NCBI RefSeq assembly: GCF_988243305.1
Contig: NZ_OZ547136.1
Direction: 5' to 3' (one strand)
Length of the DNA: 64,000 nt
Shown here: positions 1 to 37,596 of the stretch, one piece after another
Layout: the number at the start of each line of letters is the position of its first letter
How positions within the stretch are numbered: the stretch's first letter is position 1
The notes under the pieces: generated by a model
What the model saw: only the letters and a program-made list of their open reading frames with translations
The model's database searches: none
Told to the model about the DNA's origin: nothing
Position numbers and translations under genes: made by a program

Positions 1-139
1 GGACAACGTCACAGAGAAGTACACATTTTAATTCAATGGCCAGAAGGGGAGTTATTGCTGAATGTTATGCGCAAAAAATAAGAAATTATTTGTAGACTGA
101 ACCGCCCCGGGTTTCCTGGAGAGTGTTTTATCTGTGAAC

Positions 140-640
<501 letters not shown>

Positions 641-663
641 CTATTTCCCTGCCTCTCCTCCCC

Positions 664-697
664 GAACCGGACGTGCACCTTTCAGCGCATCCGGCTC
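664..697 (-). ncRNA. Group II intron domain V (catalytic hairpin)
   Basis: Minus strand GAGCCGGATGCGCTGAAAGGTGCACGTCCGGTTC: 34 nt, GAGC...GAAA...GGTTC pattern with a perfectly paired stem, about 50 nt before the inferred 3' splice site. Confidence 0.7.
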
Positions 698-702
698 TCC
701 AT

Positions 703-2226
703 TTAAATGCTGGCGAACGCCATTGCCACTTCTGTAAAGCGCGATGTATACGTGTTTCTGGTCTCCGTCCTCAGATAGGGATTACCTTCGGGTAGCCGCC
801 AGCGGAACAGCTTCTTGCCTTGCCCCACCAACCGGTACAGTATTTCGCCGCTGAGCTTGCCGTGATTGGTTTTACCAAATAAAACCCACGTTTTGCTCTG
901 ACCCGGTTTCGGTGATTTACACCACCACCTCATCAGGGAAGCGATACCTGTACGGTATTTGCGGGCCAGCCAGTGAGCCAGCTTCCAGAACACGACACGG
1001 TCGATATAACTGAAGACTTTGGCCTTAAAATCAACGAACTGATAGAACATGGCCCAGCCTTTCAGTTTTCGGTTGAGTTGTTCAGCCATATCGACTTTGC
1101 TTTCACTGTAGTTGCCTGATAACAGTGCTGTCAGCGATGCGGCGAAGTTTCTGGCTTTCTCCTGCGGGATCGTTGAGACCACTCGCATCTCGCCATAACG
1201 ACTGCGTTTGCGAATGATCCTGTGCCCCAGAAAGATAAAGCCGTCATTAACATGGGTGATTTTAGTCTTATCCATGTTCAGCCTGAGTTTCAGACTGCCT
1301 TCGAGCACACCCCGACACTCCTCCCTGATGGCTTCCGCCTGTGCTTTGGTGCCTTTGACGATGAGGACAAAATCATCGGCATAGCGGCAGTACGCCACCG
1401 CGGGTTTCCACTGCCAGTTTTCTCTGACCGCCGTACTTCGGCCCCGTTGGATACTGTTATTCCAGTACCACCGATCTTTTCTGGCTTTCCCGCTCAGGTA
1501 GCGCTCATGCAGGTATTGATCGAACTCATTCAGCATGATGTTCGATAATAGCGGCGATATAGCACCGCCCTGTGGCACACCTTCACTGGCCGCCCGAAAG
1601 AGACCGACATCGATATGTCCCGTCTTGATGGTTTTCCACAGCAGAGTCATGAAACGTGCGTCACTGATCCTGCGGCGTACAGCCTTCATCAGCAGTCGAT
1701 GATGTACGGTGTCGAAGTAACTGGACAGGTCGCCTTCAATCACCCAGCGTCCCCGGGTTTCACCACAGTCTGTGAGCTGTAATTTCACCGTGCGGATCGC
1801 GTGGTGGACACTGCGCTCAGGCCGGAAGCCATATGAGAGCGTATGAAAATCACTCTCCCATATCGGCTCCATCGCCATCAGCATGGCCCGCTGAACAATA
1901 CGATCCCGCAACGCGGGGATACCCAGTGGTCGCAGTTTGCCGTTGCTTTTAGGGATGTAAACCCGTCTGGCGGGCAAGGGCTGGTAGTGGCCTGAGAGTA
2001 ATTCATCCCTGAGGATTTGCAGCTCAACAGCCAGTCTGGCCTGTAGCATTGTTTTGTTCACGCCATCAACGCCGGGGGTATGGGCCCCCTTTGATGAAAG
2101 CGTGATCCGCGCCGCTTCAGCCAGCCATTCTGGTTGTGTTATCAGACGCAGCAGCCGTTGAATCCGTAGGGACGGATCGGTGGCTGCCCATGTGGCAAGC
2201 TTGCGTTGCATTTCGCTGATTATCAA
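703..2226 (-). CDS. Group II intron-encoded protein (reverse transcriptase/maturase)
   Basis: 507-aa ORF with RT motifs (PGVDGV near N-terminus, YADDFV active-site box) and a C-terminal maturase (X) region. No obvious HNH endonuclease motif. Start codon uncertain. Confidence 0.85.
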   Translation of the reverse strand: MIISEMQRKLATWAATDPSLRIQRLLRLITQPEWLAEAARITLSSKGAHTPGVDGVNKTMLQARLAVELQILRDELLSGHYQPLPARRVYIPKSNGKLRPLGIPALRDRIVQRAMLMAMEPIWESDFHTLSYGFRPERSVHHAIRTVKLQLTDCGETRGRWVIEGDLSSYFDTVHHRLLMKAVRRRISDARFMTLLWKTIKTGHIDVGLFRAASEGVPQGGAISPLLSNIMLNEFDQYLHERYLSGKARKDRWYWNNSIQRGRSTAVRENWQWKPAVAYCRYADDFVLIVKGTKAQAEAIREECRGVLEGSLKLRLNMDKTKITHVNDGFIFLGHRIIRKRSRYGEMRVVSTIPQEKARNFAASLTALLSGNYSESKVDMAEQLNRKLKGWAMFYQFVDFKAKVFSYIDRVVFWKLAHWLARKYRTGIASLMRWWCKSPKPGQSKTWVLFGKTNHGKLSGEILYRLVGQGKKLFRWRLPEGNPYLRTETRNTYTSRFTEVAMAFASI

Positions 2227-2882
2227 AGGTCTTCACCTCGTTAGGTCAGTTAATTCACGTCGCAAACACATTCAAACTGCTTCCCTTCGCCATGTAATGG
2301 GCTTTCCCCATCGCGGACTACTACGGAAGCTCCGCCAGCCAGCGCGTCATCGGAGCCATGCCCCCTTAACATCCGTCGCTGACCTTCCCCGGTTTACCTG
2401 CCTGGACTCAGGCATACTGAGGAGGCTGCCCGTCGCACTCTTTATCCTTGCTTGCCGCAAGTTGGCAGAAGTCAGCAACGCAAGTGTGATAGACGCTGCT
2501 GCCCCGGTGTTTCGCATACATGTCAAAACACCTTCGACCGGCAGTGCTTACGTATCACTGCCAGTTCCTCCTGCACGGCCTGTCAGATCACGTAGGCCGT
2601 GGTGACGTTTTCAACCCACAGAGGCGGATTAACGGGTTCATGTTCTTCAGCCTTTCAGTACTTAACCTTGAGGATCATCTCGGCTTAGTGATCTCGCCTC
2701 AATCCCCGTTGTCAGCGGGTTACATCACCCTGCGGGCATGCCGCAGGTCACTGCCGCTCAGGCTCTCCACCGTCACACCCGGTGGGATTGTTGGGTTTCT
2801 CATCGTGAGTTACCGGTTCAATATTCCAGACAGACTCGCGGTTCATTTAAGCATCCATGCCCGCCCTGAACTCCGGGCACAC

Positions 2883-3300
2883 CGTAAGTAAAATCAGCCA
2901 CCCACAGCTGGTCAGGACGTTCTGCCACGCACTGACGGTTTACGCGGTCACCTGTGGCAACGGTTTTCCGGCTGACGGTAGTGCGGACCTTTTTACCCCG
3001 GAGAACACCGGCAAGTCCCATAACCGCCATGAGGCGCGCCACTGTACATCTGGCCACCCTGATTCCTTCCCGTAACAACTGACGCCAGACTTTACGCACA
3101 CCGTACACCTGATGATTTTCATCGTATACGCGCTGTATCTCTCTCTTCAGCCAGTCATCGTGCTGCGCACGGGCACTGCGTTTATCCGGATGATGTCGCT
3201 GTTGCTGACAATGGTAATACGTTGACGGGGCAATATGCAGTTCGCTGCATACCGGTCCGACCCCGTACTGCTCACGCAGCTTATCCAGCAGTGGCATCAT
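2883..3300 (-). CDS. IS3-family transposase OrfB, N-terminal (5' exon) part
   Basis: ORF 2818..3300 reads ...[11 protein letters not shown] then runs into intron sequence. Overlaps orfA 3' end as expected for the -1 frameshift OrfAB arrangement. Confidence 0.75.
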
Positions 3301-3623
3301 TTTTTCCAGAGGCGGTCGAACTCCGCCTTCGCAAAATAAGCGGAAGCCTGGCGAAGGATATCGTTACTGCGGCGCAGTTCACGATTTTCACGTTCCAGCT
3401 CTTTCAGACGCTGACGTTCAGCGGTGGTGAGCCCTCCATCACCGCCCCCGGTATCCCGCTCATGCTGGCGAACCCAGACACGCAGAGTCTCCGGCGTACA
3501 GCCAATCTTTGGGGCAATGGAACAAATTGCCGCCCACTGTGAGTCATACTCATCCTGACTTTCCAGAACCATACGAATCGCCCGCTGACGGACTTCGGGG
3601 GAAAAACGAGTATTTTTAGTCAT
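3297..3623 (-). CDS. IS3-family transposase OrfA (HTH/leucine-zipper)
   Basis: 108-aa [22 protein letters not shown]...[36 protein letters not shown]; recalled as IS629/IS1203-type OrfA. Confidence 0.85.
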
Positions 3624-4023
3624 CCTGTTTACCTCTTTCTCAGGGAGTTTAGTCTCCAGGATTCCCGGGACGGTTCAGTTTCCATTCATGCTTTTAATCT
3701 TTCCCAAAATAACTAAAGCCAGATGTAACAGGCGAACATGGTAAAGTGTCCGCATATTTGAACCTCGCTGATAACGCCTTCACCTGACAACATATTGTCA
3801 GTGCTTCAGCATGTTAAGCTGTTCTTCTGAAAGGTCGGTAAGCTCCAGGACCATATTCCGACTTATCCTGGAAGGATGGCTGGTTCAGACTTCAGGATAT
3901 GGTTGAGGGTTACCTAGTGATGAAGTCTCTTGATCAGGAGATCTGATCAAGAGACAGCACTGGGTGGGGGTGACCATCTCATATCTATGCCTCCATTTGG
4001 CAATCATCAATTTTGACAGAAAT

Positions 4024-4056
4024 AAAGCACAGGGGCTGTTCACATAGCCCCTGTGC
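4024..4056 (-). terminator. Putative rho-independent terminator downstream of MFS gene
   Basis: 10-bp perfect stem CACAGGGGCT / AGCCCCTGTG (4026-4053) followed on the minus strand by a U-rich stretch CTTTATTTCTG. Confidence 0.4.
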
Positions 4057-4138
4057 AGAGCAATTGATAACTCTTACTTTGTTGAAAATTCATTGCAGCT
4101 AAGGTCAATGCCACAACAACAAAGCAAATAAAGATTAA

Positions 4139-5425
4139 TCAGGCTTTATTAGGTAAAGTATTTACCGAATGTGAAATCTTCACTGTCAGTGTAACAACTG
4201 CTGAACACAATAGCGTGGCTATCATAAAGATGAATGCACTGTTGTAACTTCCGTCGCTGCTTTGGATCAACCAGCCAATGACAGGGGCAGAAATAACCCC
4301 AGCCATCTGACCGCCAAAGTTAACGATACCTGATGCTCGCCCCATGATATTACTGGGAATAGTATCCATCAAAATGCCCCAGAACATTGCCATAGCGAAG
4401 AACATAAACAACGCTGAAACACATTGATAAACAACAGCCATATCCGCACTACTTACGCTGAAAGTCAAGTACAGGAACCCTGCAGCAATTACGGAAGTCA
4501 AGACATATAGTGTTTTACGTTGTGGTTTTAATTTATCTGAGCAATAGCCACCTAATAATGTCCCCCCAGCTCCAAATAGAAAGGGGATCGCAGCCATTAC
4601 GCCAGTTTTGGCCAATGAGAATTCACGAACAGTAATTAGATAACTTGGCAACCAAGTTGAAAAGCCCCAGAACGTAATATCAAACAAAAACCAAATGCAG
4701 GCCATCTGCCAAAGTACAGGCATCTTAAGTACATCTTTAAATGCAATATTACTTTTGCCTTGCCCCCCGTCCTGGTTATCTGATGCTAGCTCAACCAGAT
4801 CCTGCTGCGTTATTGCTGGATGATCTTTTGGATTATCACGGGTAAATAACCAGATACCCGCAGCAATAAATAAACCTGGTATACCCAATACGATGAAGAC
4901 CATGTGCCAGCCAAATGCACCGATAATGCTCGCCGCTACAACAACCGCCAGTGCTGGCCCTAAGGTGTTCACCGTAGACTGAATGGCTGTTGCGCGTCCT
5001 CGCTCTTTCGATGGAAAATAGGTCGAAATCATCTTCCATGAAGCTGACGGGAAACAACCTTCCCCTATACCAAAGAAGAAACGAACAATCAGCATTAACG
5101 GCAGAGCAAGTACCGCACCAGTAAGGCTGGTAAATATGGACCACCATGCAATACCAATGGCCATAATTTTCCTTGAGCCAAACTTATCGGCTAACATTCC
5201 ACCGGGAATCTGAAATGCAGCATAACCAATAAAAAAAGCACTAATAATTAAACCTTGTTGTGTTGTATCAAGATTTAAATCTTTGCCAATATAAGGTAAT
5301 GAAACACTCATGACCATTCTGTCGAGAAAAGAGAGTAACCATGCTAACCAAATTAAGGTCAAGACGGTATATCTTGCTTTCCAAAGTTTTGGTTTACCTA
5401 AAGGTAAAGATGTTTGTAGATTCAT
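4139..5425 (-). CDS. MFS transporter, anion:cation symporter (ACS) family-like
   Basis: 428-aa ORF with about 12 hydrophobic segments and MFS signature region ...GGMLADKFGSRK...; last gene of a four-gene minus-strand operon. Confidence 0.75.
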   Translation of the reverse strand: MNLQTSLPLGKPKLWKARYTVLTLIWLAWLLSFLDRMVMSVSLPYIGKDLNLDTTQQGLIISAFFIGYAAFQIPGGMLADKFGSRKIMAIGIAWWSIFTSLTGAVLALPLMLIVRFFFGIGEGCFPSASWKMISTYFPSKERGRATAIQSTVNTLGPALAVVVAASIIGAFGWHMVFIVLGIPGLFIAAGIWLFTRDNPKDHPAITQQDLVELASDNQDGGQGKSNIAFKDVLKMPVLWQMACIWFLFDITFWGFSTWLPSYLITVREFSLAKTGVMAAIPFLFGAGGTLLGGYCSDKLKPQRKTLYVLTSVIAAGFLYLTFSVSSADMAVVYQCVSALFMFFAMAMFWGILMDTIPSNIMGRASGIVNFGGQMAGVISAPVIGWLIQSSDGSYNSAFIFMIATLLCSAVVTLTVKISHSVNTLPNKA

Positions 5426-5502
5426 TGTAATGTCCTTTGAGTGTAACTATCTATCGCGACTCTTTTGGTCGCGATAGATCAATAAGTATTTAACGTAATT
5501 TA

Positions 5503-7098
5503 TTAATATTCTTTTCTGATAACTTTACCGCTACAGGCATAACTTTCCGTACCATTAATTAAGGCGATACGTCCATTGACCATTACAAGTTCAATTCCTT
5601 CTGGATACTGATTTGGCTCTACAAATGTTCCCTTATCTGCAATGGTTTTGGGATCGAACATTACAATATCAGCCGCATACCCAACTTTAAGTAATCCCCT
5701 GTTTTGCAGACCTAATACTTCCGCAGGTTTGCCGGTCATTTTACGAATTGCATCCTCCCAACTTAGGCATCCCTCTTCACGCACATATTTGCCCAGTACA
5801 CGAGGAAAGGCTCCAAACACTCGAGGATGGGGTTTTCCTGCCCCCATTAAACCATCAGTACAGACGTTCTGCTCTGCACGACAGAGGAATTTAATAACGT
5901 GTTCTTCTGTCCCATAGAAATCAACCATTCCTACAGCGTTTTCTTCTTCAAGAAGCAAATCGAAAGTGGCGTTATAGGGATCTTTACCGCGTAATTCGCC
6001 TAACTGGACAAGATTCAAACCTACGGCATCCTGATTTTTGGCAGTTTTCACACTGGTGACAAAAATTTGGTCTAGACCAGCAAAGTCAATAAAGTTATCC
6101 CATCCTGGAATACCTTGCTGAATGTCGTCGATCATTTTTGCACGCAGTTCTGGCGAAGCTAGTCGTTTCAGCAATTTATCCGTTCCTCCGGAATGGACCC
6201 ACGGAGGTAGGATTACACCAAGCATAGTGCTACCTGCAACATACGGATATTGATCGTAAGAGATACGTATTCCCTCTTTCTGCGCCTGTTCCAACATGCC
6301 AAGCATTTGGTCAATAAGCCCCCAGTTTTTCTTCCCACATACTTTCATATGTGATATATGGAGCCACACACCACTAGCTTTGGCTATATCGATTAATTCT
6401 TGGGTTGAATTGATAATATCATCAGCTTCACTGCGCTGATGCACCACAAAGAGCCCATCATATTTCGCTGTGACTTTACATAATTCAATCAACTCAGCAG
6501 TATCGCCAAAGGCGCAGGGCATATAGATAAGCCCAGAGGAAAGACCAAATGCCCCAGCTTTTAACTCCCGCTCAAGGATTTCACACATCTTTGCGACGTC
6601 TTCACGGGTAGAAGGGCGACCATCAAGTCCCATCGCTTCCATACGTACATTACCATGCGGAACCAGATACGCTAGATTTGTTGCTGGATGGTGAGATTCC
6701 AATAGGTTTAGGTATCCATCGGTATTTTTATATTTCCAGTCTATTTTATCGGTATCACCGTCAAGTCCAGCAATATTTTTACGCCAAGCTGGAATATATT
6801 TCTCAGGTAGTGGAGCCAATGCGACACCATCCTGTCCAAGTAACTCAGTAGTAATACCTTGACGTATTTTTGCCGATAGTTCAGGATTTATAATGGCCGA
6901 TAAATCAGAATGTGTGTGTGTATCAATAAAACCAGGGCAAATAATTTTTCCGCTTGCATCAATAAATTGTTCATTCTTACCAACATCAACGTGGCCGATG
7001 GAAATAATATATCCATCATCAACTACCACGTCAGTAATTATGCCCGGACTTCCTGTTCCATCAATAACATTTCCATTTTTAAAAATTGTTTTCATCAT
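5503..7098 (-). CDS. N-acyl-D-amino-acid deacylase (D-aminoacylase) family amidohydrolase
   Basis: ORF with KNGNVIDGTG...FIDTHTHSDL metal-binding amidohydrolase motifs. Start placed at the ATG (7098) preceded by GGAGA on the minus strand. Confidence 0.75.
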   Translation of the reverse strand: MMKTIFKNGNVIDGTGSPGIITDVVVDDGYIISIGHVDVGKNEQFIDASGKIICPGFIDTHTHSDLSAIINPELSAKIRQGITTELLGQDGVALAPLPEKYIPAWRKNIAGLDGDTDKIDWKYKNTDGYLNLLESHHPATNLAYLVPHGNVRMEAMGLDGRPSTREDVAKMCEILERELKAGAFGLSSGLIYMPCAFGDTAELIELCKVTAKYDGLFVVHQRSEADDIINSTQELIDIAKASGVWLHISHMKVCGKKNWGLIDQMLGMLEQAQKEGIRISYDQYPYVAGSTMLGVILPPWVHSGGTDKLLKRLASPELRAKMIDDIQQGIPGWDNFIDFAGLDQIFVTSVKTAKNQDAVGLNLVQLGELRGKDPYNATFDLLLEEENAVGMVDFYGTEEHVIKFLCRAEQNVCTDGLMGAGKPHPRVFGAFPRVLGKYVREEGCLSWEDAIRKMTGKPAEVLGLQNRGLLKVGYAADIVMFDPKTIADKGTFVEPNQYPEGIELVMVNGRIALINGTESYACSGKVIRKEY

Positions 7099-7161
7099 AA
7101 TTCTCCATGACGATGTCACATGGTGACACCGCCTGTAAGGGAAGAGGTTTTATCTTTAAAT

Positions 7162-8346
7162 TTAACGGAGATATAGTGTCTGAATAATGCTGTAATAACC
7201 ACTGGCCGAACCGGTTAATTGCTCGATCTCAATGTACTCATCAATGGTGTGCGCCAAGTTTTCCCGTGAAGGTCCAAACCCAATAGTTTTGATCCCCGCT
7301 TCACCAGCATAGTGGCTTCCGTTTGTACAAAATGAGTACTGCGTGATGGTCGGTGAAAACCCTGCCTTACGAATACCAACCAACGCAGCTTGTACAAATT
7401 CATCAGATTCGTCAAACACCCACCCAGGGAAGAAACGCTCACCTTCAATAGTTGCTCCTGTGTAGCAGGACTCTTGGCCTACTGCGTACGAGACCCGCCC
7501 TTTAAACTGCGGATCGAGGATTGCGAACTCTGCCAGTACACGTTCCAGAGGTGCAATAACGTTTTCTTTCGTTTCTCCGACAAGCAAACGGCGATCGTAA
7601 GTTGCACGGCAGTAATCCGGCACTACTGATGCTCCCGGATATGGCGATGATTTAATGTCTGTTAACTCTAAAATTCCGGGGCCAAGTATCGGATGCATTG
7701 GTGGTACAATGGTACGAATTTTGTCAATTAATTGTGCCATTTTGTAGACAGCATTTATTCCTGCCTGTGGATTGGCTGAGTGAGCTGGTTTCCCAAATGT
7801 TTCGACAACAATTTCAGCGCGTCCACGCTGACCGATTTTCAGGTTTAATTCGGAAGCTTCACCGATAATTACGTAATCAGGTTTAAAACGTTCACTGACC
7901 AAGCGTGCCGCAACACCTTCAAAACACTCTTCATGGACAATACAGGCTACGTAAATTTTGCCGGAAAAATTACGCTGGTAATCCTGACCAAAAAAACCAA
8001 CGGCGGAGATCATAGCCGCAACAGCTCCCTTCATGTCGGTTGCCCCCCGACCATAAATTTTGCCTTCGTCAATATCACCGCCATATGGATTCCGAGTCCA
8101 CATATCTTCGTTTACAGGCACAGTATCAATATGCCCATCCAAAACGAGAGTTTTCCCTGGCTGATTGCCAATAATACCACCAATAATATTGCCATACTTA
8201 TCGATATGAATATCGTCAAACTGGTAATACTGCATCATATCTTTTATGGCATTCACTACATCCCCTTCCTGACCGGAATAGCTTTTTTGTTGGATCAATG
8301 TCTGACAATTTTTAATAACTTCTTTATAACGACTTGCAGATAACAT
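7162..8346 (-). CDS. M20-family peptidase (ArgE/DapE/YgeY-like)
   Basis: 394-aa ORF with HIDTVPV and GRGATDMKG metal-ligand motifs typical of M20 deacylases. Confidence 0.75.
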   Translation of the reverse strand: MLSASRYKEVIKNCQTLIQQKSYSGQEGDVVNAIKDMMQYYQFDDIHIDKYGNIIGGIIGNQPGKTLVLDGHIDTVPVNEDMWTRNPYGGDIDEGKIYGRGATDMKGAVAAMISAVGFFGQDYQRNFSGKIYVACIVHEECFEGVAARLVSERFKPDYVIIGEASELNLKIGQRGRAEIVVETFGKPAHSANPQAGINAVYKMAQLIDKIRTIVPPMHPILGPGILELTDIKSSPYPGASVVPDYCRATYDRRLLVGETKENVIAPLERVLAEFAILDPQFKGRVSYAVGQESCYTGATIEGERFFPGWVFDESDEFVQAALVGIRKAGFSPTITQYSFCTNGSHYAGEAGIKTIGFGPSRENLAHTIDEYIEIEQLTGSASGYYSIIQTLYLR

Positions 8347-8378
8347 GGTGTTCCTCCGTTATTATTTAAATTAGAAAA

Positions 8379-9593
8379 TTACTGCTGAAGTACCGGATAC
8401 TGAGTCCCCCAGACAATATTGCGATATGATTCTGGGTCAGTGTCACCTTCAGTGCTGATTAGCAAAACACGGGAATGTGAATCCAGCCCCAACTGTTCAC
8501 GGGTTTGCCTAAATGTAGGGGAGGTCATCAGTAACGCCAGAAGCCCTGTGGTTACTGCCCCTGACTCTCCAGAAATAATCTGCGGATCTCCTGCTAACGG
8601 ATTTCCCAAAATACGCATACCCAACATTGCAACCTCGTCAGGACAGGAGGCAAAGGCTGTAGCATAGTCACGTAGCAGCTTCCAGCCGATACTGTTAGCC
8701 TCGCCACAAGCCAGTCCTGCCATGAGTGTCTGCAAATCCCCCCCTACTGCCACGGCATTTCCATCTTTCGCCAAGGCTGAGCGGTAGAGGCAATCGGCAA
8801 TTAATGCTTCTACAACGATTACTTTTGGACGATTATCCCCCCAAGCAGCAGTCACCATTCCCTGGACCATACCCGCAAACGAACCAACCCCCGCTTGGAC
8901 AAAGATATGTGTTGGTGCTACCTGATGGAGTTGAGCCATAGCCTCCAGCATCAACGTGCTATAGCCCTGCATGATCCATAGAGGAATTTTTTCATACCCT
9001 TCCCAAGCGGTGTCCTGAACAACAATCCAGCCGGATTTATCTGCCTGCTCTGCGGTCATTCGAACAGCATCGTCATAGTTCATATTGACAATTTCAGCCG
9101 TAGCACCTTCATTGCGAATTGATGACAGGCGTTGTTGCGAAGACCCCTTTGGCATATAAACTACTGCATTTTGCTTTAGCTGACGCGCCATCCACGCTAC
9201 TCCCCGCCCGTGGTTACCGTCAGTAGTAGTAGCAAAGGTAACTGTTTTCAGATAATGGCGCACATCGTCACTAGTCATGATATCAAACGACAATTCATCA
9301 ATCTCTTTCCCTAGTAATTCTGCGATATGACATGCCATGGCATAGGCGCCACCCAGCACTTTGAAGGCTTTTAGGCCAAAACGCTGAGACTCATCTTTGA
9401 GATAGATCTTTTTTATCCCTAATTTTTGTGAAAGCGCAGGTAATGTATAGAGCGGCGTTGGCTCGTAGCCTGGTATTGTCCGATGAAAATTCAATGCTTT
9501 TACCAGCTCATTGTGACTAAATGAAGCTAGTGGTGCGCTAGGTTGCTGAGTAAATTGTGTCTGGTTAATAAAAAAGGATATTTTTTCCTGCAT
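8379..9593 (-). CDS. Diaminopropionate ammonia-lyase-like PLP enzyme (DpaL/YgeX family)
   Basis: 404-aa ORF, fold-type II PLP enzyme with lysine in ...QRFGLKAFKVLGG...; first gene of the operon. Confidence 0.75.
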   Translation of the reverse strand: MQEKISFFINQTQFTQQPSAPLASFSHNELVKALNFHRTIPGYEPTPLYTLPALSQKLGIKKIYLKDESQRFGLKAFKVLGGAYAMACHIAELLGKEIDELSFDIMTSDDVRHYLKTVTFATTTDGNHGRGVAWMARQLKQNAVVYMPKGSSQQRLSSIRNEGATAEIVNMNYDDAVRMTAEQADKSGWIVVQDTAWEGYEKIPLWIMQGYSTLMLEAMAQLHQVAPTHIFVQAGVGSFAGMVQGMVTAAWGDNRPKVIVVEALIADCLYRSALAKDGNAVAVGGDLQTLMAGLACGEANSIGWKLLRDYATAFASCPDEVAMLGMRILGNPLAGDPQIISGESGAVTTGLLALLMTSPTFRQTREQLGLDSHSRVLLISTEGDTDPESYRNIVWGTQYPVLQQ

Positions 9594-9675
9594 GATAAGA
9601 CCTCATTGTACTGGTATCTCGCACCCTGTAATCAGAGAAATCCAAAGATGCCTTCTGTATGACTATTCACTAAAA

Positions 9676-9691
9676 AGCAAAATGCGTACCA
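9676..9691 (-). promoter_or_regulatory. Candidate sigma-54 (-24/-12) promoter for the catabolic operon
   Basis: Minus-strand TGGTACGCATTTTGCT: GG and GC elements separated by 10 nt, near-consensus to TGGCACG-N4-TTGC. About 80 bp upstream of the operon ATG and adjacent to a divergent sigma-54 activator gene. Confidence 0.5.
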
Positions 9692-9973
9692 GTTTTTTAT
9701 TAGAGTTAGTAAAAAGTAACATATATTTCTTTAACCTTTTCATTTCAATGAATTAGGAAGTCATTGCGTCATAATGAATCCCCCTCCCTAGTATTGGCCT
9801 TATTTCAATGCCTGATAAATTCTCATTAATGAGAATTTATGTGATCAATCAAAAGAAAATAATAAAAACACAAATAAAACATATAGATATATTGATCTTT
9901 TTCAAGTAAATTTTTCCTAATATCATATAATTTCTCATTTTTCTGAGAATTTTATACTGACTGGAGGAGAACC

Positions 9974-11719
9974 ATGATTTCAGTACTGAGAAACATTCAG
10001 GATGATATATGTAATTATGCCGATGCTATCTCTGGCATAATCGGAACTGATGTAGAAATCATTGATGAGTCATTAATGCGCATAGCTGGTACAGGTCAAT
10101 ACAGGTATATGCTCAATGAGAGTGTGGTAAAAAATGGTTACATTTATCGGCATGTATTACAGGTACGAAAAACAGTTCTGATCACAAATCCAGGAGAACA
10201 TCCTCTCTGCCAGTTATGTGAGAAAAACCATTATTGCTCGGAAATGTTAGATTTGAACACACCCATTTTTCTCAATGAGCGTGTCATCGGAGTCATTGGA
10301 ATTATTTGCTCTACCCAGACACAGCGTAAAATCTTGTTGAACCAGATTGATAAATTTATTACCTTTATTGAGCAAATTGCTGCGATGATTTCCAGTAAAG
10401 TCTTCGAATGTCTGGAACGCCTGCGGGCCCAAGAAACTCTCAGTACATTTCGTCGATTGATTGATGCGATGGATCGCGGTGTTGTAGCTATTGATGGTAA
10501 GGGCCGAATCTGGCACGCTAACAACTCAGCCGATCGCATACTTAACCGCAAGGTTCAAGGTATTACGTTAACGATTGAAACAACCGGGGACATTCTATAT
10601 GGAGATGAAGAAGCATGGTTGACGCTGGAAGGAGAAAGATACCATGTGTTGTGCAAACAAATTTCTCTTTCCTCATTAGATAATGATCGACTCACCATGA
10701 TTATCTTTCGTGATGCACATGACTATCTGAGCACAATAGTTTATCCTTACGAATCTGATGCTCAAGTGCGATTAATTGGACATTCACCACTAATGGAACA
10801 ACTCAGAAGCACCGTTAGAAAAATCGCCAGTAGTTGTGCCAGCGTACTGATCACCGGAGAAAGTGGCTCAGGTAAAGAAGTTGTGGCATTTGCTATTCAT
10901 CAGAATAGTCCACGTAAATCCGCTCCTTTTGTAACAATCAACTGCGCTGCAATCCCAGAGCAACTGCTGGAAAGCGAGCTATTTGGCTACGTGAAGGGGG
11001 CATTTAGTGGGGCGAATCCTAAAGGACGTATAGGTAAATTTGAACTGGCCAATGGGGGAAGTCTCTTTCTCGATGAGATCGGAGATATGCCGCTCCATCT
11101 GCAGGCCAAGCTGCTTAGAGTTCTTCAGGAAAAAAACATTACCCGCGTTGGCTCTAATAATATTATCAATATTGATGTGCGCATTATTGCTGCGACCAAC
11201 AAAAACATCCGTGAAATGGTTGAGAGTAATCAGTTTCGAGAAGACCTTTATTATCGCCTGAATGTGGTTCCTCTAGTAATTCCTTCTTTACGGGAACGAC
11301 GGACTGATATTGCCCTCCTTGCACAATATTTTGCTGATGAGTTCTCTGAAAGCTATCAACGTCCAGTGAAAAAACTCCCCGATGATATAATTAACCATCT
11401 TTACGCTTGGCACTGGCCTGGTAACATCCGTGAATTACGTAATGTCATTGAGTATATTTTTGTTATGCGTGGTGAAACTACTGATATCAACGTCAGCCAT
11501 CTTCCCCCTTATCTGCTCAATGTAGTGGACAACAGCAAAACTGTTATGACAATCAACACCAAGCAGCTACTGAGTCAGGGAAGACAAGCGGAAAGGAGGG
11601 CAATTGAAACTGCATTACAACGATATAGCCCAAGTGGAGAGGGGAAAAAACAAGCTGCCGCTGAATTAGGAATAAGTATTGCTACACTATACCGAAAGAT
11701 AAAACAATATGGTTTATAG
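9974..11719 (+). CDS. Sigma-54-dependent transcriptional activator (bEBP, YgeV-like) with N-terminal sensor domain
   Basis: 581-aa ORF with Walker [15 protein letters not shown] loop, ELFGY motif and C-terminal HTH (...[17 protein letters not shown]). Divergent from the operon. Confidence 0.85.
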
Positions 11720-11889
11720 GCGAATTTTCTTTATCACACAATATTTAGATAAGCAAATTGAGTAATTATTCTGTAAAGCATTCAGCGAATGCCTGTTATG
11801 TCACAAAAATTATTTACAGATCACATAAGTCATTTTCAAATGGCTTTGACTCTGGAAAAATAAGGTGTGCACTACTGTACGGGGTGAGC

Positions 11890-12895
11890 AACACTGGTGA
11901 TGGCGGGGTATTGTTTCATGAAATGCTAAATAACTGCTCCTAATGCCGCTACACTTTAGCCAGCCCATGTTTTCCACCGGGAAATGGGCTGACGGTATCC
12001 ATAAAGTGACGAACCTTTTTCAACAACTGCCACATTGAACGGCACTGGTGATTTCGGGTTACTGTCTCATGAAGCGCCTGCCATAACCGTTCGATATGAT
12101 TGACCCACGGCGAGTAAACCGGCTGATAAATTATCCTGAACTTCGAGTTTGCTTTCAGCCAGCGCAACGTTTCACGGCTTTTGTGGATGATGTAGTTATC
12201 GACAATGAGTGTAATCGTTTTTGCCCGCCGGTATGTCGCTTTCAGGTGTTTTAACAGACTGATAAATAAGGACGAACCTTTACTGTTCCCACCAACGTAG
12301 CTGACTTTTCCCGTACCGCTGTGCAGCGCACCGGCAAGATAGTACTTTTCATTCTGACCCGGCGTGACAACGCGCTTTTGCTGCCCACGTAGCTGCCAGC
12401 CTGCACCAATTTTGGGATTGAGGTGAATATCCACTTCATCTTCGTAAAACACGGGGTTTTCCGCACAGCATTTCGCCAGTGCTTCATGAATAGCGACCAT
12501 TTTTTCTTCTTTGTGTGGGTCACGGATACGCAGTGTCGGCGCAGTTCTCCGCCATACCAGTCCGGCAGCAGGCAACCAGCGGCATATACACTCGGCAGGT
12601 AATGATTTGTCCATTAACACCCGACTGCGTGAACCAGTTAATCCAGGGTCCAACATAGGAACGGACTCAGCAGAGCATTCTAGCAACATCGCTGACACGG
12701 TGGAGCCATTGCAGTATCACCATAGCAGTCAGTCTGCGGGCATAATTTTTATCGTGTGTTTTGTGGATAGCTTTCTGTATCAGGTGTCGTTCGTTACAGG
12801 GAATTGGCTCTATGATTGGCATAGTTCAGTCCGGTTGGTGATTTGTTTTAATTTGTCGATTGAACAAACGCACAATCCGGGCTGAGTTCCCTCAA
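11890..12895 (-). mobile_element. IS630-family element, apparently defective (approximate ends)
   Basis: Transposase reading frame recognisable in two frames: N-terminus MPIIEPIPCNERHLIQKAIHKTHDKNYARRLTAM... from ATG at 12820-12822, ending at an in-frame TGA; C-terminal DDE part in ORF 11949..12698. Element ends not mapped. Confidence 0.6.
11949..12822 (-). pseudogene. IS630-family (Tc1/mariner-like) transposase, disrupted by premature stop/frameshift
   Basis: C-terminal 249-aa ORF ...DPHKEEKMVAIHEALAKCCAENPVFYEDEVDIHLNPKIGAGWQLRGQQKRVVTPGQNEKYYLAGALHSGTGK...DNYIIHKSRET... The N-terminal segment is in a different frame and stops at TGA. Confidence 0.6.
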
Positions 12896-15010
12896 AGTGA
12901 TCTACTATTCCGTGCAGCTATTTAGATCAAGGCTAAGGCAGGAATTTTATGTAATTAATGCTAGAGGTAAACGTTGTGGGTAAATGGTTTGCATGGTTAA
13001 TATTTAACCATAAGGAATAAGAGGTATTGCAGAATTAATTCCGTATAGTTATTCTTCTTGTAAGAAGATTTTTGGGTGCTAGTGATAAATTACAGAGCCT
13101 ATAGAAATGTAAAGTAACAAATCACAGAATAAGGATACAATAGCATAATTTATTGTCACACAAAGCCCCAAGACATTCTGTAATAAAAGGAATTTCCATA
13201 AGAAGAACCATTGACAATAATATGAGCACCACCATTGTAGAGATATTTATTTATGACTGAAAAGGAACTCCAAAATTTGGCTATTTCTATATATGAAAGG
13301 CAACGAGAGAAGTTATCACGTGAGACAGAGTGTAATAAATCTACCTCAATAAGATTTGCCCTAGAAGATTTCCTAAAGAATGCTCCGAAACGTATGCGAT
13401 CTGCGCGTGCTCGCCCCCCAGGGTAATAAATGTCGCAAACTCTGATAATATTTTTATGAAAACAAGCATATTTACAAACGTAAACTAATGATTCTAATTT
13501 GACAGAATATAAACTATAAGTATTAATAAATACCATACGGAGCAGAAAAAAATATCAAAATGAGTTAATTTGATTAGAAAGATTTATCCCATTTATAAAG
13601 ATAATTGTAGAAAGATTCATTGACTCTAAGAGCAAATAAGGAGAGGGCATACAGGATATAACTAGTACTCATAATAAAAATCCCTCTACCGATATAAGTA
13701 AAATTTATTTCCCAGACGAGTTTTTAATAATACATATCAGAAACAGTGCTAAACGATGGGCCGTAATCCTCATGAATAGTAACTCATGGTTATTTTACAC
13801 TGGATTATCGGTGGGGTAATTCTGATAATAGAAACACCTGAAAAACTAAAATCATTAATTTTAAAATACAACCATATACTCATCAAACTCTCGATACACC
13901 ATTCTTCTTTTAAAGTAAAGAAAAACTCTATCTGTGCTTATGTTCCACAACATAAATAGAATAAAAAAATTAAGGATTTATATATTAAGAGTGAATTTAC
14001 ATTTTAGGCTAACTTTAGTACATATTAATTATTGTTTCTTATTAATTTTAAACTTCAAAAGCTATATCAAGGGTTGCCACTTCTATCTGCGACTAACAGC
14101 ATATCTATCAGCAACAATTGATTAATTCCAGCACCTCATGTCGGCGCGATCTGGTGGAAAAGCCATTCCACCAAAACAACCCCAAGCGCTGGCACGTTGG
14201 GGAGATCTGCACTGTGAACCAGCTGGCAATGAGCCGCTTTATTATCGAGTTCGGTGACCGCCTAGACGGTCACTTCTGAGAAAAGGCATTTACACAGAAT
14301 CCTAAACCGGCTCGCAGGTTTCCCCCACTCCCCATCCGCACTCAAGTTCAGACGGCGAATAACATAGCTAATCAGCTCATTACGGAATGACTACCATCCA
14401 GATAGTGTGCCGCAGTTTAAGGTTCGGTCAACCGCTTTTTAACCATTCAGCATTGCCTACAATACAAATAAGGAGCCTTATATTATGCCTAATCTCTGTA
14501 TGCTGCATAGTGCCGGGTGCCTCCCGGTGAGTCCAGCCTGGTGTCTCTGAACCCGCATAGAAAGGATTAGGGTAATATAAAAACAAACACCTGTTACTGA
14601 TATGCTCCGCCGCTTAGGGGAGTTCACCATACATTTTTATTTTTAACAAAAAAGCTCAAGGCGACAATAATAAATACTATAAAATGTGAGCAGCATAACA
14701 TTTTAACTTAGTAACTAATATTCACTAAACTTACCAATTCACATACGCCCCACGGCATGGCAAAGCTTCGTTACGTTAGTTTATACCACATAGGTATTAT
14801 TACCAAACTAAATAATCACTTTACGCTCTGTATTTTGCCTGTTTTCACTGCGGTTTTTCTCAATACCCCGTCCAGAATAACGTTAACACATTATTAACTT
14901 AAATCCGGAGAACATGATGATGACTGGATTCAAACACACTTAACATGAATATCCTCTATCCATTAAAATAACTGTCATTGAGCCGGTTGAAAAAACGAGA
15001 TGAACTATAA

Positions 15011-15805: not shown

Positions 15806-16003
15806 GTGCAAGAACAAATTTCCATTGCGGGTTTTTATGGGCTGGAGATTGGCAGGCAAATGATCCCAAGCCTCGCCAGCGTAATTACTCCCCGTTTTGA
15901 TATTGGTCGGATGGCCGCCCAAATGTTGCTGAGCAAAATTAAGAATAACGATCACAACACTGTTGACCTCGGGTATCAGATTTATCACTGTAACACGCTT
16001 TAG
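15806..16003 (+). pseudogene. idnR: 3' remnant of LacI-family regulator gene, fused downstream of idnO remnant
   Basis: ORF ...[55 protein letters not shown] resembles a LacI/GntR-type C-terminus. The transporter gene expected between idnO and idnR is missing. Confidence 0.4.
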
Positions 16004-16080
16004 GTTATTTTCTCTTCATTACACGTATTCTCTTTGCCGGACGTTGCCTATACTCCAAGCAGGAAACTGGAGGAAATCTC

Positions 16081-16745
16081 ATGAGCGCCTCCCTGTTAAT
16101 TGCCCGCATGCCAATACGGTGGGGTGGGATATCTTTGGCGAGAAAGGCCATCCGGTGCGGGCAACGGTTTCAGACCTAGGGCCACTGTTGCTGGCGTGGC
16201 TGTTGAATCTCAACGATGTGCAGTCTGGCGTGCTGGATATCATTTTCCGCATTGCTGATGATCAGGGATTGTTGCTGCTCGACTTTAAAGATCTGCGGGC
16301 AATTACCCAGTACATCGGCGATAACGCCAAATCCTTCCAGAATCAGTACGGTAATATCAGTAGCGCATCGGTTGGTGCCATCCCGCGCGGATTACTGTCG
16401 CTGGAGCAACAAGGCGCAGAGCATTTCTTTGGCGAGCCGATGCTGGATATCAAAGACTGGATGCGCACCGATACCAACGGTAAAGGCGTTATTAATATCC
16501 TCAGCGCCGAGAAGCTTTATCAGATGCCGAAACTGTATGCAGCCAGTCTGCTGTGGATGCTCTCGGAGCTGTATGAACAATTGCCGGAAGCGGGCGATCT
16601 GGAGAAACCAAAACTGGTGTTTTTCTTCGACGAAGCGCATCTGCTGTTTAACGATGCAGCACTGGTACTGCTGGATAAGATTGAGCAGGTGATAAGGCTT
16701 ATTCGCTCAAAAGGCGTTGTCGTCAGAACGGCTTCCCCTGTGTGA
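16081..16745 (+). pseudogene. yjgR: DUF853/HerA-like ATPase gene with internal deletion and 3' truncation
   Basis: ATG at 16081 encodes MSASLLIAR then shifts frame. ORF 15963..16745 carries the central region (...[24 protein letters not shown]...[17 protein letters not shown]...) but ends prematurely with unrelated residues. Confidence 0.55.
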
Positions 16746-17258
16746 CAAAGCCATAGCTCAGGTGCGTGCGGTCCGCACGGCGCGGAGCCTGAGGGCTTCA
16801 CGGCGGAGGATATGCGGACCATCGGGCGCTACCTGCACTGCGAGGCGAATTGGAACATCGACTCGGACTTGAGCCTGTGAGGGGGGCCGTCCTCGGGAGA
16901 AGTTTTTCTGCGAAATAACTATGCGCCGACGGACGAACACTCGTTCGTGTGGCCTATGGCCCAGGGCAAAGGCTGGGGGGCCCCTATTAAGTTGTCAAGA
17001 ATGTTTATTACACCAGCGGGGTATAAAAAGTACCGTCACGCATCATGGCGAATAGAACGTCGCAGCGCCTTGTTCACAGTGTTTTCACTCGTGGTTATCT
17101 GTACCCGTGAATATCAGACCATTGTCACCAGCCCATGCCTGTAATTCTGTCAGAATGGCTACAGCCTGTTTGTTGGGTGGTACAAGATGCAGTGCCCTCT
17201 GGTTCCCTCTGATGAGAGTCCTGGCGGGGTGAACAAATAAAAAAGAAAACATAAATAA

Positions 17259-17296
17259 AACCATCCGGCTTTTGGGGCCGGATGGTTATTCATTAT
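17259..17296 (-). terminator. Hairpin terminator downstream of integrase gene
   Basis: CCATCCGGC / GCCGGATGG 9-bp stem (17264-17291) flanked by A/T runs on both sides. Confidence 0.5.
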
Positions 17297-17321
17297 TTCT
17301 GTGTCACTGAATTTTCATTCA

Positions 17322-18503
17322 TCAGGTCTGCTCAGAAAGTGAATCAATGTAGTCAGCGTACCATTGCATCATTTCACGGCGACCATCGAGATACTGTGCG
17401 TGGTTATAGGTACCGCGCATGATGTTTTTATCAACATGGGCAAGCTGGAGTTCAATCCAGGCAGAGCTGAAATCATGGTCATGGAGAATGGTACTGAAAG
17501 TATGCCGAAAACCATGAGCTGTAGTGAATGTATGCCAGCCAACTTGTTGAAGAAACTCATTGATGCAACCACGGCTACGAGGTTGATTACCCCTGTATAC
17601 ACCAGGAATAACCAGATCTGAGTTACGGGGATTTGTGATTATTTTTATATCTTTCAATAACATTTGAGCCTGATGAGAAAGAGGAACAACATGCGGCCTC
17701 CGCATTTTCATTCTCTCTTTTGGGATTACCCAGAGGGCATTGGTAAAATCAATTTCATCCCAAGTAGCCAGGCGTAATTCTCCCGTTCGAACAGCAGTCA
17801 GAACCAGTATCCGCGTTACCAGAGACATAAAATTTCCTGAAACTTTCATTTGGTACATGAAAGCTCCTAACTGTTCTTCAGATAGCATCCGTCTCTGCTG
17901 TTTTTCAGGATGCAGAACAACACTGCTGAGAGTCGATGCTGGGTTAATAGTGGCGCGCCCCGTCGCAATGGCATAATCAAATATTTGAGAACAGAGCTGA
18001 CGAGTCTTACGTAACGCTTCAAGTTTGCCATTCCTTTCAATAACCCTCAGTGCATTCAATATTTCCAAGGGGCGAATATCAGCCACAGGACGCTTCCCTA
18101 GCGTGGGATTAATATGATTCTCGAATCTTGCACGCTGGTCCGCTAAATAACCCGCAGTCCAACGACAAGCCATATGTGTGAACAACTCTTCTGCAAGAGT
18201 ACAAAATGTGCATGCAATACTTTCTCTTAGTGCATGTTTACTCGCCTGTTTTTCATATGAAGGATCTTTTCCTTCAGCCAGGAGTTTACGTGCGTCATCC
18301 CGTTTCTGACGCGCCAGAGCCAGTGATATGCCTGGATAGACACCAATCACCAATTTCTTTTCTTTACCCGCAAATCGATACTTCAGATTCCAGTAACGAG
18401 CGCCAGATTTCTTGATAAGAAGGTAAAGTCCTTGACCATCAGAAAGTTTGTAATCCTTGTCAGCGGGTTTGGCCGACTCAATTTGTCGAACAGTAAGTGG
18501 CAT
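17322..18503 (-). CDS. Tyrosine recombinase, P4-type phage/island integrase
   Basis: 393-aa ORF MPLTVRQIESAKPADKDYKLSDGQGLYLLIKKSGARYWNLKYRF... with C-terminal catalytic region ...HGFRHTFSTIL...LAHVDKNIMRGTYNHAQY (R..HxxR..Y). No tRNA gene adjacent. Confidence 0.85.
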   Translation of the reverse strand: MPLTVRQIESAKPADKDYKLSDGQGLYLLIKKSGARYWNLKYRFAGKEKKLVIGVYPGISLALARQKRDDARKLLAEGKDPSYEKQASKHALRESIACTFCTLAEELFTHMACRWTAGYLADQRARFENHINPTLGKRPVADIRPLEILNALRVIERNGKLEALRKTRQLCSQIFDYAIATGRATINPASTLSSVVLHPEKQQRRMLSEEQLGAFMYQMKVSGNFMSLVTRILVLTAVRTGELRLATWDEIDFTNALWVIPKERMKMRRPHVVPLSHQAQMLLKDIKIITNPRNSDLVIPGVYRGNQPRSRGCINEFLQQVGWHTFTTAHGFRHTFSTILHDHDFSSAWIELQLAHVDKNIMRGTYNHAQYLDGRREMMQWYADYIDSLSEQT

Positions 18504-18678
18504 GATGTTAACTCCGAAAAGTAGCCCCCAGAGTAGCCCCCAAAATCATCTTGATGCTCATGGAAGATGGTTTACATCCAGAGTAAAAGAATTTCTGATA
18601 ATACCTTATTTTAACGTGTGTTAAAGGGGATGAAGAGAGTTCTGTTGAAATCAGTCGAAATAAATAGGGCTTAATAAA

Positions 18679-19493
18679 TCCTCCCCGCCGGGGAGTGCTG
18701 GCTGGAACGCCTGCGACTGGCAAAAACGTTGGGCTTCGATTTTGTCGAGATGTCGGTAGATGAAACTGACGAGCGCCTGTCGCGCCTCGACTGGAGCCGC
18801 GAGCAGCGTCTGGCGCTGGTGAATGCGATTGTTGAAACCGGCGTGCGTGTGCCGTCCATGTGCCTTTCTGCCCATCGTCGTTTTCCGTTGGGCAGCGAAG
18901 ATGACGCGGTGCGGGCGCAGGGGCTGGAGATTATGCATAAAGCCATCCAGTTCGCCCAGGACGTTGGCATTCGCGTGATCCAGCTGGCGGGCTATGACGT
19001 TTACTATCAGGAAGTCAATAACGAAACGCGTCGTCGTTTCCGTGACGGCCTGAAAGAGAGCGTTGAGATGGCAAGCCGCGCGCAGGTGACGCTGGCGATG
19101 GAGATCATGGATTATCCGTTGATGAACTCCATCAGCAAGGCGCTGGGTTACGCGCACTATCTCAACAACCCGTGGTTCCAGCTCTACCCGGATATCGGCA
19201 ACCTGTCGGCGTGGGACAACGATGTGCAGATGGAGTTGCAGGCCGGAATCGGGCATATCGTCGCGGTACATGTGAAAGACACCAAACCTGGCGTCTTCAA
19301 AAACGTGCCGTTTGGCGAAGGTGTAGTGGATTTCGAACGTTGTTTCGAAACGCTCAAACAGAGTGGCTATTGCGGGCCGTACCTGATTGAGATGTGGAGC
19401 GAAACGGCGGAAGACCCGGCGGCAGAAGTGGCGAAAGCGCGTGATTGGGTGAAAGCGCGCATGGCGAAAGCGGGCATGGTGGAGGCGGCATAA
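18679..19493 (+). pseudogene. ulaE: L-ribulose-5-phosphate 3-epimerase gene, 5'-truncated
   Basis: Reading frame begins mid-protein (...[32 protein letters not shown]...). The first ~13 codons and upstream ula genes are absent; homology starts abruptly about 180 bp from the integrase start. No ATG. Confidence 0.65.
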
Positions 19494-35995: not shown

Positions 35996-36194
35996 ATCTT
36001 ATCCGACCTTTCAGGCCAGATCCTCGGAAGGGGAAGTTGATTAATTTGTGTGAAATACACATTGAAAGCCGATTCGAAGAAAGTGAACCGGCATTTTCAG
36101 TGGCTAGTATAGCGTAAGGTACTGTAAAGTCGCCAGAGGGTTAAAATTCAGACTGCTGATAAATGCAATACTGCCTGATGCGCTATGCCAATCA

Positions 36195-37420
<1,226 letters not shown>

Positions 37421-37421
37421 C

Positions 37422-37480
<59 letters not shown>

Positions 37481-37596
37481 GCAGTCCTTGCAATATATTG
37501 AATTTGGACGATTTTGTAGGCCTGGTAAGGCGTTTACGCCGCATCTGGCATAAATAAAGCGCACTTTATCAACAATCTACATTTGTACCCGTAACG

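Follow-up and report, generated by a model that had tools for sequence, protein, structure and literature searches.

A mosaic of three pseudogene remnants beside a P4-type integrase, very probably a scar inside a decayed genomic island at ulaE

The interval between the yjgR-like remnant and the integrase

The window, by which we mean the whole 64-kb stretch of DNA that was analysed, contains a 513-bp interval (16746-17258) that sits where the original prediction had placed it, between a truncated yjgR-like ORF (15963-16745) and the hairpin of an integrase terminator (17259-17287). This interval had been described as an ORF-poor patch of markedly higher GC content, which could be either a fragment of foreign coding sequence or an island-end/attachment remnant. 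As far as composition is concerned, the description applies to the left part only. The GC content of 16713-16977 is 62.3%, which is in the top 0.1% of 265-bp windows in the 64 kb, while that of 16978-17258 is 46.3%, and the interval as a whole is unremarkable at 53.6%, since ~32-34% of equal-length windows are as GC-rich or richer. The patch is indeed essentially devoid of genuine ORFs: three small ones of 59, 60, and 65 aa are present, but all of them are chimeric or antisense, and they stay below the Pfam family thresholds. The left boundary of the foreign DNA is at 16713-16718 rather than 16746, i.e., ~30 bp further to the left than predicted, and the last nine codons of the yjgR-like ORF are read-through into the first of the fragments described below.

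To the left, the yjgR-like remnant consists of the first ~10 codons of the gene, a 236-bp internal deletion, and then codons ~90-297, and it matches the Pfam family HerA_C over profile positions 92-295 only. When compared to K-12, most of idnR and all of idnT are missing. Further upstream, the first 13 kb of the window are largely mobile-element DNA. Positions 1-15000 mix such debris with a metabolic cluster (MFS transporter, amidohydrolase, M20 peptidase, PLP enzyme, and sigma-54 activator), and parts of this region match 75-kb E. coli O104:H4 plasmids. To the right, an intact integrase gene is followed by the boundary with the chromosome, where homology to K-12 ulaE begins at 18681, which is nucleotide 43 of that gene. 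The features are listed in Table 1.

Table 1. Features in and around the patch (coordinates are positions in the window)
Feature	Coordinates	Strand	Evidence or remark
Group II intron reverse transcriptase/maturase	703-2226		
IS3-type HTH ORF	within 1-15000		
IS630-type DDE_3 ORF	11949-12698		
AT-rich stretch	12900-14100		26-35% GC
idnR' 3' end and yjgR-like remnant	15806-16717	+	BLAST vs K-12; cut at 16717
yjgR'/Tle1-like joint	16713-16717		5-bp microhomology GGCGT; three-way alignment of window, K-12 yjgR, and Tle1-like gene
Tle1-like/DUF2235 internal 3' fragment	16713-16977	+	91.4-92.5% nt identity over 265 bp to annotated CDSs
ORF, 60 aa	16758-16940	-	antisense to pseudogene fragment
ORF, 65 aa	16947-17144	+	chimeric across all three fragments
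IS110-family right end	16976-17069	-	last 94 bp of ~1.45-kb element (~6%)
Second tyrosine integrase fragment	17067-17228	-	82.7-87% nt identity to E. coli 90-1 partial integrase
ORF, 59 aa	17085-17264	-	integrase remnant read from fortuitous ATG
Integrase 3' UTR and intrinsic terminator	17229-17321	-	hairpin 17259-17287 (terminator scan, inverted repeat)
Intact P4-type tyrosine integrase, 393 aa	17322-18503	-	Pfam Arm-DNA-bind_3, Phage_int_M, Phage_integrase
Tandem 11-bp repeat AGTAGCCCCCA x2	18520-18542	.	just upstream of int start
att core CTCCCCGCCGGGGAG	18681-18695	.	15-bp 7-1-7 palindrome = ulaE nt 43-57; island/chromosome boundary

Three abutted gene remnants

When 16700-17320 was compared by BLAST, as had been proposed with the original prediction, to 5,426 complete E. 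coli genomes and 72,556 plasmids, there were three non-overlapping sets of matches. No record in these collections covers most of the query, and no homology to an intact intergenic region was found. The 516 bp at 16713-17228 are a mosaic of three unrelated and abutted pseudogene remnants: fragments of a Tle1-like gene and of a second integrase, with the end of an IS110-family element between them. This three-part make-up had been missed, as had the probable status of the flanking "yjgR" as foreign cargo.

The GC-rich part is a 3' internal piece of a gene annotated as a T6SS phospholipase effector (Tle1-like/DUF2235), which bears out the suggestion of a fragment of foreign coding sequence. Over its 265 bp, it is 92.5% identical to a gene in the ula island of the E. 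coli DETEC-P1056 chromosome (NZ_CP116169) and 91.4-91.7% identical to genes on E. coli and E. albertii plasmids, both small ColE1-like and large. The fragment retains about residues 447-535 of the 563-aa parent (~88 codons), collinear at the protein level, and displays two lesions: 1 bp has been lost near 16780, and TGG has become a TGA stop at 16878-16880, where the parent has a Trp. Upstream of the deletion, the parent-like frame is still readable. After it, the fragment reads GFTAEDMRTIGRYLHCEANWNIDSDLSL, a stop, and then GGPSSGEVFLRNNYAPTDEHSFVWPMAQGKGWG, where the parent reads ...HCSANWNIDSDLSLWVSPSSGEVFLRNNYAPTDERSFVWPMAPGKGW. The short frame that had been noticed in the patch is therefore real, being encoded at 16794-16880 as GFTAEDMRTIGRYLHCEANWNIDSDLSL*, and 27 of its 28 residues are identical to the Tle1-like protein. 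The parent protein matches PF09994, with residues 237-333 as the best-scoring stretch; with only residues ~447-535 left, frameshifted and interrupted by a stop, the fragment has neither the catalytic alpha/beta-hydrolase domain nor an intact ORF. Since the 3' part of the parent gene itself has a GC content of 61-62%, it accounts for the GC spike of the patch. No other part of Tle1 or of DUF2931, its partner elsewhere, is found anywhere in the window.

The second remnant comprises ~32 bp of the non-coding right end and the last ~20 transposase codons (..RCDVLFAMMRDGTFYTPLV*) of an IS110-family element. The full element is ~1.44-1.46 kb long, with a non-coding left end of ~210-230 bp and an intact transposase of 398 aa that matches PF01548 and PF02371. 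Here, 94 of ~1450 bp have been kept, which do not include the DEDD transposase (PF01548 and PF02371) flanked by both ends, and the window contains no other piece of this element. Identity is 94.7% to the copy in E. coli C5, 92.6% to those in E. coli 550 and RM10410, and 87.5% to an intact copy on a Salmonella Poona plasmid. When four independent copies were aligned with the window, similarity was seen to begin at one shared point, a G-run followed by CCCCTATTAAG, i.e., homology ends at the natural terminus of the element. Since this terminus is shared by all of them, the Tle1/IS boundary (~16976) is a true junction of IS insertion. On its other side, within the transposase C-terminus, the IS remnant ends at a deletion breakpoint.

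Two further IS110-family sequences were compared with this remnant. A pseudogene in the CP55 ula island that lacks its C-terminus, considered as the missing part of the element, has no nucleotide similarity to it and was rejected. The window also harbors an intact copy of IS621 (326-aa IS110-family recombinase, ORF 36391-37371 on the + strand) at ~36200-37500, upstream of msrA, which shows no nucleotide-level relationship to the remnant either. For the segment 36000-37600 (IS621 plus the end of msrA), the complete E. coli genomes that match best show 100% identity, and in 1,622 genomes a single place accounts for at least 80% of its length. The sRNA STnc450 was detected beside IS621 at 36057-36114.

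The third remnant is a fragment of a tyrosine integrase that reads ..RALHLVPPNKQAVAILTELQAWAGDNGLIFTG.. and then, past an 11-bp frame-shifting deletion, SENTVNKA. It has lost both the N-terminus and the catalytic C-terminus, with ~50 codons left. Its reference is a 150-aa partial integrase that sits just downstream of the full selC-island integrase in E. coli 90-1 and 17 other genomes and that matches PF00589 over profile positions 61-170. The fragment aligns with the first ~45 residues of this protein, with 26 of 35 aa identical (E=1e-16). On its own, it has no Pfam match, and a complete PF00589 catalytic domain is absent from 17067-17228, the rest having been deleted. Because BLASTP against the intact integrase of the window gave no significant alignment, its identity rests on the selC-island partial integrase. 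More broadly, window 17093-17522 has a nucleotide identity of 82.7-87% to the integrase 3' end, terminator, and partial integrase of the selC island in E. coli 90-1. The module downstream of int appears to have been exchanged between ula-type and selC-type island families.

Two other joints delimit the fragments. The one between yjgR' and the Tle1-like gene, with its short microhomology (Table 1), is a product of illegitimate recombination. That between the IS and the integrase fragment lies within ~17066-17078 and is not placeable to the base because the closest relative of the integrase fragment is only ~87% identical.

The integrase, its att core, and islands at the ula site

The intact integrase is 99.2% identical in amino acids to the one encoded by the DETEC-P1056 ula island and 97.2% identical to that of CP55, and nucleotide identity of 97-99% to E. 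coli ula islands begins at 17229 or 17242 and runs rightward. The tandem AGTAGCCCCCA repeat upstream of its start is a candidate arm-type binding site for this integrase; the DETEC-P1056 island has similar TGGGGGCTA repeats near its far end. The window has a single occurrence of the att core CTCCCCGCCGGGGAG, and the same 14-15 bp form a direct repeat at both ends of the ~68-kb DETEC-P1056 ula island (NZ_CP116169 4184100-4251990). In this island, an intact Tle1-like/DUF2931 pair is accompanied by Rop and by remnants of plasmid replication, which makes a plasmid-derived Tle1-like gene a documented cargo of this island family. The patch is on the cargo side of the integrase, in the island interior. 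In the literature, we found only two points of reference, namely, Biggel et al. 2020 (PMC7686366), who list the ula site (ulaD-ulaE) among those at which PAIs integrate, and, in Streptomyces, the precedent of PAISt for island integration at a palindrome (PMC4057263).

The mosaic is absent from all 5,426 complete RefSeq E. coli genomes. It is present in eight other public contigs (seven NCBI assemblies and one ENA metagenome assembly), which were picked as encoding the identical integrase, annotated as E. coli in the sources. Only two singleton SNPs are seen across the mosaic in these contigs, and since this invariance equals that of the flanks, it reflects clonality rather than constraint. Contigs encoding the UlaF of the window were found to contain only standard ula operons plus one ordinary ula island, this UlaF being common to thousands of genomes. 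As a side observation, the eight contigs (L009-L016) have at about 10005-11042 an extra ~1 kb relative to window 14498-14556, flanked by a ~58-bp overlap and with no obvious transposase ORF.

The eight contigs differ in how the remnant is joined to the chromosome. In two of them (L014 and L015), the block of int and mosaic is joined via the palindrome to ulaD-ulaE5' and not to ulaE'-ulaF (at about 5805-5830 of these two contigs). Near-clonal genomes thus contain one and the same decayed remnant in both orientations, at 99.6-99.7% identity and with the mosaic junctions unchanged. Among complete genomes with a ula island, int lies beside ulaE' in 63 and beside ulaD in 9. This orientation polymorphism suggests that islands may enter or flip in either orientation at the palindromic core. 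Tentatively, and with rather more doubt than conviction, we would extend this to the present remnant: its lone intact integrase may still act on the CTCCCCG-C-CGGGGAG core, inserting or flipping the island either way, in which case the patch would be a passenger of a segment of at least 18 kb that site-specific recombination can invert. A palindromic ulaE core with islands in both orientations, including one decayed island in both, merits a separate look.

Alternative readings, history, and known relatives of the scar

We are highly confident that the patch is a scar without function, located inside a decayed genomic island that had inserted into ulaE at its 5' end. The alternative that survives best, which we nevertheless regard as unlikely, is that a large inversion or deletion in the chromosome had its breakpoint at the patch and joined the native yjgR locus to the ulaE island, so that yjgR would not be cargo. 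The order idnD'-idnO'-idnR'-yjgR' is as in K-12, idnO' is 97.9% identical to K-12, and in K-12 only ~66 kb separate yjgR from ulaE; a single inversion would yield the observed order. Yet among 5,425 complete E. coli genomes, none exceeds 94.3% identity to the yjgR'/idnR' allele, in contrast to 97-99% on the ulaE-rpsF side. Relative to K-12, yjgR' has 41 differences in 591 nucleotides, of which 30 fall at third codon positions; 30 codons change synonymously and 7 non-synonymously, and such mostly synonymous differences argue that yjgR' diverged as a working gene in some other lineage. Moreover, the junction to the ulaD side in L014 and L015 is easily explained when the island comprises all that lies left of the core, whereas a native yjgR would there require the loss or relocation of 66 kb of essential genes. 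The yjgR-like remnant is probably a xenologous allele, carried as island cargo rather than being the native locus. A search for its donor with a yjgR'-specific 25-mer gave 0 matches in 100,044 species-representative genomes.

That the patch might instead encode a functional small protein or a non-coding RNA, e.g., an element like the bridge RNA of IS110, is very improbable. IS110-family elements reportedly encode a structured guide RNA, ORFs of 59-65 aa are present, and the sequence is nearly invariant in nine genomes. However, this invariance is the clonality already described, the ORFs are chimeric or antisense without family matches, and what has been kept of the IS is its transposase-distal right end, without the ~210-230 bp of non-coding left end in which the guide RNAs of the IS110 group lie. 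The covariance models of Rfam 15 gave no match with E<=1 in 16000-19000, the promoter scan revealed no excess of promoter-like sites in the patch, and these scans together with those for direct and inverted repeats detected nothing beyond the int terminator.

Least probable of all, and largely refuted, is the reading, also considered originally, that the patch is left over from an island end or attachment site, as an attL/attR scar whose partner would be sequence upstream of the integrase: although the patch adjoins the integrase in a region of changed composition, there is no direct repeat of at least 12 nt between 16600-17300 and 18504-18760 and no convincing one linking it to 18504-18690, it contains no direct repeat of the core or of ulaE sequence, the core palindrome is at the chromosomal boundary only, its second copy in complete genomes is tens of kb off at the far island end, and gene fragments account for all of the patch.

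A plausible history of the scar within a decayed ulaE island, in which the order of events is our reconstruction, would be as follows. First, an island with a P4-type integrase would have had part of an older integrase immediately downstream of its int, as a scar of tandem accretion similar to those in selC islands. Second, the same island would have borne plasmid-derived Tle1-like cargo, as the DETEC-P1056 ula island still does. Third, an IS110-family element would have inserted into the Tle1-like gene, its natural right terminus being at ~16976. Fourth, deletions and inversions, with at least one inversion among them, would have eliminated the bulk of the IS and whatever else was left of the old integrase, and would have trimmed the Tle1-like gene by its 5' 80% and its ~30 final codons. 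Fifth, the same events would have fused the IS interior to the integrase fragment (~17066-17078) and, on the left side, the Tle1-like fragment to the xenologous yjgR remnant via the GGCGT microhomology. A simple deletion from a DETEC-P1056-like island is ruled out because the orientation of the Tle1-like gene relative to int is opposite in DETEC-P1056 and in the window. No precursor with an intact IS110 element inside a Tle1-like gene was found in the E. coli genomes, plasmids, or species-representative genomes that were searched, and the Tle1/IS110 junction GGCTGGGGGGCCCCTATTAAGTTGTC has 0 exact matches in the 100,044 species-representative genomes.

The patch is ordinary debris of known gene families within a known type of island and is neither an attachment site nor a new gene. 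It is predicted to yield no functional product and to be carried as neutral DNA in a clonal lineage. While of little importance in itself, it documents a genomic island decaying into a patchwork of gene fragments and warns that a local GC spike beside an integrase can be a pseudogene shard instead of an att site or a new gene. In annotation, 16713-17228 should receive three pseudogene/remnant features and no CDS, and the yjgR-like ORF should be flagged as foreign and truncated.

Each part of the mosaic has a counterpart in a known system. The likeness to the Tle1-like/DUF2931 pair of ColE1-like and large E. coli/E. albertii plasmids and of the DETEC-P1056 island amounts to 91-92.5% nucleotide identity over 265 bp in the same reading frame, but only ~88 codons are left here, all of them C-terminal to the catalytic domain, frameshifted and with a stop, and the DUF2931 partner is absent. 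The ~1.45-kb IS110-family element is represented by its right terminus and last ~20 codons, which are 87-95% identical, whereas the DEDD/Transposase_20 body and the non-coding left end are missing. The tandem-integrase scar at selC in E. coli 90-1 has the same layout, with int, terminator, and an N-terminally truncated second int on the same strand. There, however, the full integrase is only ~44% identical in protein to the one in the window, and the partial int has been trimmed further here, to ~50 codons, by the IS110 joint. Finally, the mosaic is seen in 0 of 72 complete E. coli genomes with a ula island, and in the window gene debris takes the place of the cargo that usually adjoins int in such islands (response regulator/uhpC/afu-type module or capsule genes), yet the window shares with them an orthologous integrase (97-99% aa identity), the identical ulaE core, and an int, terminator, and att arm that are 97-99% identical over 17229-18680.
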